The notes under the pieces: generated by a model
Database searches by the model: none
What the model saw: the letters and a program-made list of their open reading frames with translations, nothing else
What the model was told of the DNA's origin: nothing
Program-made: the position numbers and the translations under genes
Assembly: GCF_018350175.1 (NCBI RefSeq)
Contig: NC_058368.1
Coordinates: 80,540,001-80,604,000, forward strand
Source of the DNA: Felis catus
Lineage: Eukaryota
Length of the DNA: 64,000 bases
Direction: 5' to 3'
In this document: positions 53,429 to 64,000 of the stretch, piece after piece
How the letters are laid out: every line of letters begins with the position of its first letter
Position numbering within the stretch: position 1 is the stretch's first letter

Positions 53429-53820
53429 GTATATATAAAATAAGTTTGGTAAGAAACCACCAAACGTCTTCCAAAGCGGCTGTGCCCTGTTGCATTCCCA
53501 CCAGCAGTGAATAAGAATTTCTGTTGCTCCGCATCCTGATCAGCAAATGGTGTTGTCAGTGTTGGGTACTGGCCGTTCTAATAGGTGTTTAGTGGTGTCT
53601 TTTTTTAATTTGCATTTCCCTGATGACATATGATGTGGAACATCTTTTCACATGCTTACTTGCCATCTGTGTCTCTTTGGTGAGGTGTCTGTTCAGGTCT
53701 TTTGCTCATTTTTAAATTAGGTTGTCTACTTACTGTTGAGTTTTAGGAGCATTTTGTATATTTTGGGGACAAGTCCTTGATTGTATATATATTCTTTGCA
53801 AATACTTTCTTCTAGTCTTT
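52170..53820 (-). mobile_element. Old L1 3' region interrupted by two plus-strand CAN-SINEs (52801-53022, 53035-53225) and a (TA/TG)n expansion (53226-53437)
   Basis: TTTTGCCTTTTCCAGAATG.CATATAGTTGG...TTGCATTTCCCTGATGAC...GAACATCTTTTCA are L1 3'-end motifs in antisense. Confidence 0.82.
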
Positions 53821-60453: not shown

Positions 60454-63038
60454 GAGTTGATTCTCGTTACTTGTGGTAGTTGTGTCCTACAAAGTCACTG
60501 TGAACACTGAATTAGCAACTACTGAACCACTCTTCCTAGGGCAAATACCTGGTTAATTTCCTTCCAGATAGACATTGCAAGGTTTTGTCAACCAGTCAAC
60601 ACATAATCTTGTTTTAGTGTATTTCCACTTGGAGACGGCTTATTTAATACATGTTCCTTACAAATAATTAGTTGCATGCAGGGTTTCTTCATAGTACAAC
60701 ACAATTTCAGTTACAGCACCATGAACTGTTTACCTCTTCAGTTCAGTTGCACACGGTGCACACTCAGCAAACACATACTGTATGCTGCATAGTACGGTAA
60801 TGTAAGAAAGCCAGCCCTGAACACAGCATTATGCGAAGCTTGAACGCTTGAAATTTTGTGAAAACATTAAAACCTTACTTGTGGTGGAGCTGTGGGCTTT
60901 GTGATGGGGCAGTGGGCAGTGTGGTTAAATCTCTAGACCTTGGCTTGCCCCACAAAAACCAAGACAGAGTAGGTGTTGTACTCGGCAGAAGAGGAAGAAG
61001 TCAGTGAGGGTGACACGTGAGATCGGACAGCTCTACCTCAGGAGTTCGGCTTTCACAATGTGTTGATGGTGTCGGCAACTCTCCCTCCCAAACTGGCTTG
61101 AAAAATTCCTTCAGCCTTGTCTGCTTGGCTTTTCGCCTCAAATCTTTAAGTGTTTCTGCATAAGGGACGAATGCAGTGGAGGTGAGGCGCTTAAATGTGA
61201 GGCTCCGTTCGAGCACGGGGTCACACTCTTCCATGTCATGGAAAATTTTTTCCAGGGCAGAATTCCATTCTGCTATTTTGGCTGCCGTGAGAGGGACAAT
61301 TCTTGGACTCTTAGGCTGACCTTCATCACTGCCATCATCATCGCTGACGCCAGTGCCATGCTTTGCTATCTCATCCAGGTCTTTGTTGGTGGGTTCTACT
61401 GCCATTTCTGCCAAAATGTCCTCCACATCTCCCTCCCTCATGTCTCTGAAGCCTTCTCCACTTATTTGCTGTGCAATATGCATTATGTTTTCCACACTGT
61501 TCTTTATACTTTCTCTAACACCTTCAAAGCCTTCAAAAGTTTTCACGCAGTCTGGCCAAACATTTGCCCAACAGTTATTAATAGTAGCCTGCCTGATGCT
61601 GTCCCACGCTGTGCTGATATAATCTATAACGTTGCGTATCGTGACGGAATTCCAGTAGTCCATCATGGTGGTTTCCTCGTTGGCATCAAGAGCCTCAAAA
61701 GCCTTGCTATAAAGCTCCCTGGTGTAGTGGGCCTTGAAAGCTTTTATTATCCCCTGACTGAGGGGTTGGATGAGAGAAGCAGTGTTTGGGGGCATGAAGA
61801 GAACTTCTATGTCAGGGTGGGCATTTTCAAGTTCTTCATGGCAATGAACTGGGGCACTATCCAAAATTAGTAAAATCCTGAAGGCAAGGTTTTTGCTATG
61901 GAGGTAGCGTTCAGCTTCTGGGATGAAGCAGTTGTGGAACCAATCCCAGAATATTTCAGATGCCATCCATGCCTTTTTGTTCCACCTCCAATGGACTGGC
62001 ATACGGTTCAGATTTTTCCCTCGAAGTGCTTGAGGGTTTTGTGCTCTGTGTACCATGAGGGGTTTGCACTTAAAGTCACCCTTGGCATTGGCACATAATA
62101 GCAAGGTTGCACGGTCTTTGAATGATTTAAAGCCAGGAGCCTTGGAGGCCATTTGCATTATATAGGTTCGTCTGCCAACATTCTTGTAAAACAAGCCTGT
62201 CTCATCAGCGTTGAAAACCTGCTCTTCCATATAACCCTTTTCATGTATAATGCTTAGCAGATACTTTTTAAATTCTTCTGCAGCTTCCTCATCTGCAGGA
62301 CCTGCCTTCTGTCCAAGTTTAACGTTTTTCATGTGGTATCGCCTTTTGAAACGTGCAAGCCAGCCTGCACTAGCTGAGAAGGGTTTAACCTTTTCCTGAC
62401 CCTGGGTAACATGACTGTAAATTTCCTTGGCTTTCAGCCTCACAACAACACTGTCTACCATGCTCTTTTTATTGGTTGTCATCTCCTGAATCCACAAATT
62501 TAGCTGCTTTTCCATCTTTTCCATAGCCGCATCACGCACTATAGATGTTACTTTAGCACTTTCTGGAGCAGCCTCACGTACAGATCGGCGAATATCGTCT
62601 TCCTTTTTCTGGATGTACCGTATTGTTGATTCATTAACGTTGAACTCACGGCCAACAGCACTGTAACTCAGGCCTGAACGAAGCTTATCTAACACACGTA
62701 TTTTCTCTGTAAGGCACATCACAGCCTTCTTGCGCTTAGGAACATTAGACAGTGCTTTAGCGCTACGCTTGGGGGCCATTTAAAATAGCAAAGTCACCAA
62801 GAAGAACCACAAAAATGTGAAAAACGTGATGCCAGTAGAGAGTGAAAAGGACATCTGCTTACCTTAGGAGCTGAAGCAAGAGGGCAGAGCACAGTCTTGT
62901 TCAAGTTTAGCTGGGAATGTGTGTCATGTCTGTGAATGACTGGGAAAGTGCCACCAGTATTGATTTTGGGGTTACAAACAAATTTTATCAAGTAGGTGAA
63001 TTTGCACAGAATCCGTGAATGAATGAGGACGTGGACTG
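60454..63038 (-). mobile_element. Full-length TcMar-Tigger DNA transposon (about 2.6 kb) with degenerate TIRs; termini MER82-like
   Basis: Left end TA|GAGTTGATTCTCGTTACTTGTGG (TA at 60452-53). Right end CCGTGAATGAATGAGGACGTGGACTG|TA (TA at 63039-40); its reverse complement CAGTCCACGTCCTCATTCATTCACGG is an imperfect inverted match to the left end. TA duplication is typical of Tc1/mariner/pogo. Encloses the transposase ORF. Confidence 0.85.
61001..62779 (-). CDS. Tigger/pogo (TIGD/CENP-B-like) transposase-derived protein, 592 aa, single uninterrupted ORF, antisense within ARHGEF7 intron 1
   Basis: N-terminal psq-type HTH (LTEKIRVLDKL...VGREFNVNESTIRYI), Tc5/CENP-B-type HTH (MEKQLNLWI...FSASAGWLARFKRRY), DDE_1 domain motifs VFNADETGLFYK, AWM, LILDSAPVH and MPPNTASLIQPLSQGIIKAFK, acidic patch, C-terminal QTRLKEFF. 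Confidence 0.9.
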   Translation of the reverse strand: MAPKRSAKALSNVPKRKKAVMCLTEKIRVLDKLRSGLSYSAVGREFNVNESTIRYIQKKEDDIRRSVREAAPESAKVTSIVRDAAMEKMEKQLNLWIQEMTTNKKSMVDSVVVRLKAKEIYSHVTQGQEKVKPFSASAGWLARFKRRYHMKNVKLGQKAGPADEEAAEEFKKYLLSIIHEKGYMEEQVFNADETGLFYKNVGRRTYIMQMASKAPGFKSFKDRATLLLCANAKGDFKCKPLMVHRAQNPQALRGKNLNRMPVHWRWNKKAWMASEIFWDWFHNCFIPEAERYLHSKNLAFRILLILDSAPVHCHEELENAHPDIEVLFMPPNTASLIQPLSQGIIKAFKAHYTRELYSKAFEALDANEETTMMDYWNSVTIRNVIDYISTAWDSIRQATINNCWANVWPDCVKTFEGFEGVRESIKNSVENIMHIAQQISGEGFRDMREGDVEDILAEMAVEPTNKDLDEIAKHGTGVSDDDGSDEGQPKSPRIVPLTAAKIAEWNSALEKIFHDMEECDPVLERSLTFKRLTSTAFVPYAETLKDLRRKAKQTRLKEFFKPVWEGELPTPSTHCESRTPEVELSDLTCHPH

Positions 63039-64000
63039 TATTTGTATGGGTCTCTTGCCAAAACAAAAAAACCCAACCAAACAAAAACAGTGATCAGTAA
63101 AAATGGTTTAGTATAAAAATGTCTTACTTTAGCATACTGTTTTGTTGCAGGAAGTGGAATGGAAAGACGCTGAAGGAGAACAGAATGTAAAATGTCTGAC
63201 TTTTAAACAAGGAATTTGTTCATTAATTTTTTAAGATGGAGAATGGCTATTTCTACTGTTTTTTGAGCTACTGGACATAATTTTAAAGCATATTTAACAG
63301 TTTCAAAATGTCCTCAAGACATCAGAAATTAAAGCTTTGCAACTACTTAAAATTATTAAGCATGCATATTTGGTGCATACTTTTTCAAAATTCTTTTATG
63401 GAGAGGAGCAAATGGACCAGGAAGCAGCTTTGGTTTATCTGTTCACAGAAAAAAAAAAAAAATCCGTTCAATTTGGAGGAAATATGTTGGCAATTTCTTC
63501 TAAGGATTTTTAAATTGTAGGAAAAAAAGGGTCTGATTTTTGCCCTCTTTGTACTTCTTAACACCCTTGTTTTTCGTTTTGATTTATAACTTTAAAAGAC
63601 CCAAGCTTGAAATGAAACCAGAGTATTCCTGTAAGGCCTGATGGAATGCTGTGATATCCCCATACAAGGACAAAAGTGCCCTGAATGTCCTTAGATGCTA
63701 GAGTTCTGGATGATGCTGTAGTGTAGCTCTCAAAACTTAGTCTTCTTATGTGTCAGAACGACAAAGGGCCCTTCTCATGTCTCCGGCTTCTCTCTTGATT
63801 GCTCTCGGTTTTCTTGACTTTTCTGGTCCGGGAGGCTGTCAGTAACTCCTCACAGGTGTGGCAGGTGGCCCTCAAAGTTCTCTCTTGGCAGCCTGCACCG
63901 GGCCCTCCTCGACGCTCTCCGCCCGTGGTAGAGGCCGCAGACAACTGCTTCCTAGCTGACTTGCTCACTGATATGTAACTGGCTATTCTGGTTAATCATT

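Follow-up and report, generated by a model that had tools for sequence, protein, structure and literature searches.

The 64,000-nucleotide stretch of the domestic cat (Felis catus) genome analyzed here (contig NC_058368.1, positions 80,540,001 through 80,604,000; herein the window) contains a Tigger/pogo element of 2,585 bp (window positions 60454 through 63038) that is TA-flanked and lies antisense within an intron of felid ARHGEF7. The element carries an intact Tigger/pogo-type transposase open reading frame (ORF) of 592 residues on the minus strand (61001 through 62779, with the ATG at 62779). The frame is uninterrupted, its product is 99% identical to XP_047724566.1 of Prionailurus viverrinus, and relatives of the gene carry the database annotation “TIGD1-like”. 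We argue from sequence comparison that this is likely an undescribed domesticated transposase gene of a known kind, with a twin paralog.

Two helix-turn-helix (HTH) domains and a catalytic domain are encoded along the minus strand. HTH 1 (CENP-B_N; residues 15 through 66, positions 62582 through 62737) matches Pfam PF04218 with E = 3.4e-08 and has a basic KRKK at residue 15; HTH 2 (HTH_Tnp_Tc5; residues 87 through 153, positions 62321 through 62521) matches PF03221 with E = 1e-12 and CENP-B (1hlv) with E = 1e-4. The DDE_1 domain (residues 221 through 404, positions 61568 through 62119) matches PF03184 with E = 3.5e-46. The catalytic triad consists of D192 (62206, just upstream of the Pfam DDE_1 match), D307 (61861), and S341 (61759); the third catalytic Asp is replaced by Ser, with 33 residues between D307 and S341. 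Losing the third Asp of a DDE/D triad generally abolishes strand transfer and would be expected to do so here. The Pfam search of the 592-residue protein returned no host effector domain, and a weak test among 7,110 candidates found no longer mammalian fusion form. A fusion with ARHGEF7 was rejected, the element being antisense to the host gene, and a 267-residue plus-strand ORF (61067 through 61870) was set aside as the antisense shadow of the transposase ORF.

Relatives of the protein were placed using quick maximum-likelihood trees, with support from the Shimodaira–Hasegawa-like approximate likelihood ratio test (SH-aLRT) and no bootstrap. Clade A (SH-aLRT 99) unites the window gene with proteins of bears, seals, canids, otter, equids, camel, a whale clade, and colugo and with a group of 561-residue proteins; clade B (SH-aLRT 99) spans cats, pinnipeds, bears, equids, rhinos, cetaceans, hippo, camelids, colugo, and squirrels. 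The clade-B proteins (P0007, P0011, P0012, P0178, P0466, and relatives) are intact at 593 residues, have a 4-residue deletion in common, and usually retain the D-D-D triad. At the third-Asp position, clade A has Ser in carnivores, equids, and camel and Asn in the whale clade, colugo, and most of the 561-residue group; armadillo and the majority of clade-B proteins have Asp there. Full-length clade-A proteins come from Prionailurus, three bears, two seals, raccoon dog, three equids, and Cynocephalus. Both clades occur in colugo, horse, and carnivores, and each tracks the species tree and has its own lesion, as would be expected of two single loci that predate the colugo–Laurasiatheria split. 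The tree and the shared lesions likewise fit orthology of the clade-A proteins.

Other relatives were seen alongside these clades. Two sea-lion clade-A products (P0195 and P0465) are without the whole catalytic region and keep HTH 2 and the C-terminal hairpin described below; the gap could be a deletion, a frameshift model, or splicing. The armadillo protein P0006 is intact, has a D-D-D triad, joins neither clade firmly, and could be a third retained copy. Five intact proteins (P0018, P0303, P0304, P0021, and P0464) are 48 to 58% identical and form the sister group of the mammalian clades, P0018 and P0021 having a D-D-E triad. Viral contigs gave no usable relative (0 of 1 and 1 of 47 stretches, the latter L001 with a weak 21-residue match), nor did metagenomes (0 of 590 and 1 of 17, the latter L002 with a weak 22-residue match).

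In the AlphaFold model of the window protein (mean predicted local distance difference test [pLDDT] score of 77), both HTH units are well formed and the C terminus contains a helical hairpin (residues 494 through 540; positions 61160 through 61300, minus strand); the model's best structural matches are Mos1 transposase, CENP-B, and SETMAR. A first-pass annotation, made from the letters of the window alone, had held both HTH domains to be intact, and the Pfam matches, the confident modeling, and the conservation of this region, the best conserved part of the protein, agree. HTH 1 and HTH 2 are identical to those of bear at 50/52 and 66/67 residues and to those of horse at 49/52 and 60/67; the DDE domain is identical to that of bear at 174/184, and the C terminus is about 84% identical. 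Residues 160 through 565 are predicted to form a homodimer through the hairpin, with a score of 0.42 (best of three controls, 0.00), agreement between runs of at least 36%, and a pLDDT of 75. Among solved homodimers, 21 of 30 reached this mark, against 0 of 23 monomers (for eukaryotes, 17 of 29 against 0 of 30); since only 1 of 7 eukaryotic homodimers without an older solved relative reached it, the score may reflect memory. The 27 interface residues are identical at 26 or 27 positions in six of seven clade-A proteins (27 of 27 in bear, seal, and colugo) and at 24 to 26 positions in clade B and armadillo, against 65 to 82% for the rest of the C terminus (about 75 to 82% for those six clade-A proteins).

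The first-pass annotation also proposed that a short family arose from this kind of element by internal deletion, with a junction at about 60650/62621. We examined the join through translated ORFs called on public contigs rather than by alignment to a named consensus. Two short ORFs (P0290 and P0292) match residues 1 through 53 and diverge exactly at 62621. Of 127,762 frameshift-aware window positions, the 17-residue tail and stop of P0292 scored highest at a minus-strand site whose end is 60596; the P0290 tail alone fits the left block without reaching significance (rank 85). A profile search with the two ORFs returned 2,778 proteins at E ≤ 0.001, 757 of them at E ≤ 1e-10, and the analysis of the family covers 150 listed matches out of the 2,778. 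Among them, 28 are unclear or end short of residue 53, 61 stop no more than four residues from it, 8 have tails of 5 to 7 residues, 9 have tails that fit best in the left block, 7 run into the transposase, and 37 fit best elsewhere; because junction-type ORFs built the profile, these class ratios are not abundances. Copies were counted with orthologs from different species unmerged.

Among 105 tails of at least three residues, 52 start with x-[IVTMSFN]-K, as the junction predicts, and 8 start like the full ORF; pooled, they place the junction second (z = 5.0), after an AT-repeat at 53429 (z = 5.1). Among the 46 tails of at least 12 residues, 15 are consistent with starting at 60652 and 7 with starting at 62620 (p < 0.01 each), and the pooled signal is best at 60655 of 127,242 sites (z = 5.4), with 62626 second (z = 3.9). 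Upstream, parts of 98 of 124 matches align to the minus strand right of the ATG, and their coverage reaches background near 63040 through 63050. The proposed derivative is thus borne out, as is the expected pattern of two terminal blocks with a single internal gap, seen in translated ORFs and not as a DNA alignment. The left block (60454 through 60652, minus strand) is the one to which short-ORF tails map, from about 60652 to about 60570, the comparison covering the part inside the outer ~115 bp; an ATTAAA motif resembling a poly(A) signal occurs in this block near 60648 (minus strand). The right block (62621 through 63038, minus strand) comprises the 5′ noncoding part and ORF codons 1 through 53. 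On this translated evidence, the family of the element is the parent of an abundant derivative that arose by internal deletion and whose two joined blocks give a length of about 617 bp. Its copies are about 0.2 substitutions per site diverged and have largely lost their CpGs. The two breakpoints resemble each other (62615 through 62621 versus 60641 through 60652; TAC-ATC-CAG versus TGT-ATT-AAA, or Y-I-Q versus C-I-K), suggesting a microhomology-mediated deletion.

This derivative may correspond to MER82, as the first-pass annotation proposed, whose consensus would have the same two blocks and junction; the name is used here provisionally. Repbase places MER82 under Mariner/Tc1 (PMC5753468), and one MER82 copy provides a CTCF site (PMC6979391). 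No paper linking MER82 to a parent transposase was found in the literature searched, which was mostly non-subscription; a consensus of the autonomous parent may already be catalogued in Dfam.

By protein- and codon-level proxies, the ORF is under purifying selection. The neutral reference was the set of decayed derivative copies: of 148, 126 entered the comparison after removal of 12 that run on into the transposase and 10 that fail to cover the region. Over codons 1 through 53 the window matches the decayed-copy majority at 44/53 positions (0.83), compared with a median of 0.67 and a maximum of 0.82 for the decayed copies (n = 126), whereas over the adjacent 25 noncoding triplets the window matches at 11/25 versus a decayed median of 0.62. 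Five of the nine window differences from the decayed majority are CGN Arg codons (5, 16, 28, 34, and 44). Individually these are kept in 3 to 10% of decayed copies, and at least four are kept in 0 of 129, counts that the search profile biases low; all five are present in the window, bear, horse, whale clade, colugo, and armadillo, and in three of the four clade-B proteins compared. In dog and otter, whose truncated proteins were found independently, four of the five are gone, and therefore the locus itself does not protect CpGs. The observed/expected CpG ratio is 0.46 in the ORF versus 0.29 in the noncoding parts of the element, and ORF CpGs starting at codon positions 1, 2, and 3 number 22, 6, and 15. 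A substitution-only neutral simulation of 300 runs per level left the frame free of stops in none at 0.67 identity (some 0.2 substitutions per site), in 2 at 0.83, and in 10 at 0.90.

The ends of the element have fared differently from its ORF. TA target-site copies flank it on the left (60452 through 60453) and right (63039 through 63040). Next to them lie decayed terminal inverted repeats, one at the 3′ end relative to the ORF (60454 through 60478), which matches the other end weakly, and one at the 5′ end (63014 through 63038), near which derivative-ORF homology stops. The terminal motifs quoted in the first-pass annotation occur where it placed them. An alignment of the two ends as good as theirs was obtained for 11% of random TA-anchored pairs (P about 0.11), so that only traces of terminal repeats can be claimed, and they were not among the 25 longest inverted pairs from a repeat finder. 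Since the inverted repeats taken by themselves do not exceed chance, the left boundary is set by the TA together with the placement in the first-pass annotation; the right boundary is backed by the drop in derivative-ORF coverage. No second copy of the element was found in the 64-kb window. The annotation's phrase “autonomous parent” therefore suits the family of the element, as parent of the derivatives, but not the window copy, with its decayed ends and D-D-S triad; its sequence marks this copy as non-autonomous, a single immobilized descendant.

The element lies about 25 kb downstream of the first coding exon of ARHGEF7 (35505 through 35669, plus strand; PDB 2l3g, E = 1.3e-30), on the opposite strand; the exon lies in a CpG island and is followed by a GT donor. 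A strong splice-donor-like site (AAG|GTAAGC; 62857 through 62865, minus strand) is present in the 5′ noncoding part of the element. Between it and the ATG there is no AG except immediately after the site; if used, it could take out the start codon and the first HTH. Several database products have internal Met starts. On the plus strand, an acceptor-like pyrimidine run (63140 through 63200; AG at 63149 through 63150) is followed by short open frames and may be an alternative ARHGEF7 exon or chance. Tandem or simple repeats at 1 through 500, 22100 through 23100, and 60245 through 60280 give spurious long ORFs or a (CAA)n run.

Comparison with known systems places the gene near, but apart from, described domesticated transposases. 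TIGD1 itself is primate-specific and lies at EIF4E2 (PMC2777200), with a DD32D triad (PMC7325037); the window gene, felid, in an ARHGEF7 intron and with D-D-(33)-S, was accordingly rejected as its ortholog, although the two share an intronless ORF and the same “Tigger 1” clade 53 of the Dupeyron tree. In that tree all six accessions of our proteins are unlabeled tips of the “Tigger 1” clade, without discussion in the available text (Dupeyron 2020, PMC7325037). Gao 2020 recognized 12 domesticated pogo genes and excluded TIGD1-like sequences as pseudogene-like (PMC7386202); the window gene is not among the 12, and 0 of 6 accessions occur in the available supplements (cells to 400 characters). 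No description of the gene was found in the literature searched, again mostly non-subscription. Like TIGD2 through TIGD7, JRKL, and CENPBD1, it keeps the whole transposase, with CENP-B_N, HTH_Tnp_Tc5, and DDE_1 domains and an altered triad (TIGD2, DD34S; TIGD7, DD34N; PMC7386202, PMC7325037); unlike them, it is of separate origin and still sits inside a full-length, TA-flanked element. Dimerization through a C-terminal module is characteristic of CENP-B (PMC7386202).

The closest functional precedent is JRK, which is also an unfused Tigger-derived protein with two N-terminal HTHs and coexists with scattered fossil copies of its family. It is enriched on Tigger15a (PMC13538051, PMC11601254) and, among TIGD3, TIGD4, TIGD5, TIGD7, JRK, and POGK, is alone reported to be enriched on its cognate family (PMC13538051). 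Its binding is known by chromatin immunoprecipitation sequencing (ChIP-seq) and genomic high-throughput systematic evolution of ligands by exponential enrichment (GHT-SELEX), whereas that of the window protein is a prediction. JRK is also therian-wide and keeps DD32D/E, whereas the window gene is younger, patchy, and D-D-S, with a twin paralog. PGBD3 with MER85, SETMAR with Hsmar1, and KRABINER with Mlmar1 also pair a retained transposase with dispersed cognate ends; those proteins are fused to host effector domains and come from other transposon families, whereas the Pfam search and the weak test of 7,110 candidates gave no fusion for the window protein. CSB-PGBD3 binds 363 of 889 MER85 copies, a family that likewise arose by internal deletion, and this binding is uncorrelated with expression changes (PMC3459987). 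The effect of SETMAR depends on its methylase (PMC6326780), and KRABINER binds cognate ends but few of the genes it regulates are direct targets (bioRxiv 2020.05.07.082677). By analogy, these precedents are mixed and cut both ways.

Taken together, we regard it as probable, though well short of assured, that the window holds an immobilized full-length Tigger element whose transposase gene has been kept by selection, the product likely being a catalytically dead, predicted-dimer DNA binder with a motif like the terminal repeats of the family. In such a scheme, a transposon family active before the colugo–Laurasiatheria split would have scattered short derivatives, and two full-length copies would have been retained as genes, copy A being the window gene and copy B lying elsewhere. 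Copy A would have lost the third catalytic Asp early, to Asn and later to Ser. Its protein would be nuclear, catalytically dead, and dimeric through residues 494 through 540, would recognize an extended motif, and could occupy two sites or link them in the manner of CENP-B and JRK. These sites would be a minority of well-preserved ends or look-alike sites, and the protein would be dispensable in some lineages. Since the derivative copies are ~0.2 diverged with their CpGs largely gone, most ends are probably poor binding sites, and we put the chance that the protein binds derivative ends at all at about even. Of 24 listed sequencing runs, 20 contain all or some of the stretch, six being recorded as RNA; these are not counted as evidence of expression, and intronic ARHGEF7 pre-mRNA would give the same signal. 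RefSeq models of proteins of this group exist.

Several observations weigh against this reading. Truncated or partial clade-A products occur in dog, otter, dromedary, elephant seal, sea lions, blue whale, and the Galeopterus record, although some of these truncations are perhaps annotation artifacts, and non-exhaustive searches turned up no named human, mouse, cattle, pig, or bat member. TIGD1-like sequences as a group were judged pseudogene-like (Gao 2020, PMC7386202). The profile used for the derivatives has no Arg at the five sites, so the Arg count in decayed copies is biased low, and the raccoon dog frame is open yet has lost three of the five Arg codons. Finally, conservation of the DDE domain equals that of the HTHs, and selection may therefore act on more than DNA binding.

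That last point leads to a rival we hold possible but doubtful, in which the gene is domesticated but acts away from the old ends, at unrelated genomic sites, on RNA, or with partners (possibly paralog B), like most TIGD proteins. The conservation of the DDE and dimer regions at the level of the HTHs and the decay of the element's own ends are in its favor, as is the report that JRK alone, out of six human factors that derive from Tigger/pogo and have new motifs, is on its cognate family; it sits less easily with a gene younger than the TIGD genes and a first HTH little changed from the ancestral state of the family. The near-ancestral DNA-binding region would instead suit the first-pass annotation's own proposal, a network in which the protein binds many derivative (MER82-type) ends genome-wide and regulates nearby genes. 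The derivative family is real and numerous in protein databases (the 757 matches of the two-ORF profile), and JRK, SETMAR, and KRABINER are precedents, but we think this unlikely: the copies have diverged by ~0.2 substitutions per site and at least 90% of them show decay of the CpG codons, there is no effector domain (nor, in the weak test of 7,110 candidates, a longer mammalian fusion), and the gene has been lost repeatedly. Moreover, CSB-PGBD3 binding at MER85 is uncorrelated with expression and direct targets are a minority of KRABINER-regulated genes. In a variant, which we would also not expect to hold, the boreoeutherian ancestor domesticated the family two or more times, and the resulting two dimeric DNA binders, without effector domains (A and B possibly forming heterodimers), still occupy and bridge the dispersed MER82-type ends and shape chromatin or expression.

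A function may be lacking altogether. The patchy distribution and truncations, the pseudogene-like verdict of Gao 2020 on TIGD1-like sequences, and ends that lie not far from a gene's regulatory region would suit a pseudogene-like relic whose ORF survived by chance or in a hypomethylated, slowly mutating locus, with no current function. This is nevertheless improbable: the ORF is intact independently in several orders while noncoding parts of the same element are decayed and CpG-poor, the Arg codons have decayed in the truncated dog and otter clade-A copies, and neutral simulations rarely stay stop-free. We give almost no weight to a still or recently active autonomous transposon that mobilizes the derivatives. 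The element is full length, with TA flanks and an open frame, but its third catalytic Asp is Ser, its ends are no better than chance, its relatives form two single-copy clades that track the species tree, and the derivatives are heavily decayed; the D-D-S triad and decayed ends already largely refute this reading, and it was rejected.

On the domesticated-gene reading, the few known domesticated pogo/Tigger transposases would gain one, and probably two, mammalian members, drawn from a set that a survey had put aside as pseudogene-like and linked to an abundant family of derivatives. Because these derivatives are older than the orders and the gene is kept in some lineages and lost in others, it can be asked whether keeping the protein preserves its dispersed sites, a question that JRK, SETMAR, and PGBD3 do not allow. 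The network idea is in this sense a fair and testable hypothesis, albeit one with the odds against it. If it is true, the natural losses (dog, otter, and camel versus cat, bear, and horse) would provide a ready evolutionary test of a transposase-plus-binding-sites network, and such a network would have escaped human- and mouse-centered surveys.

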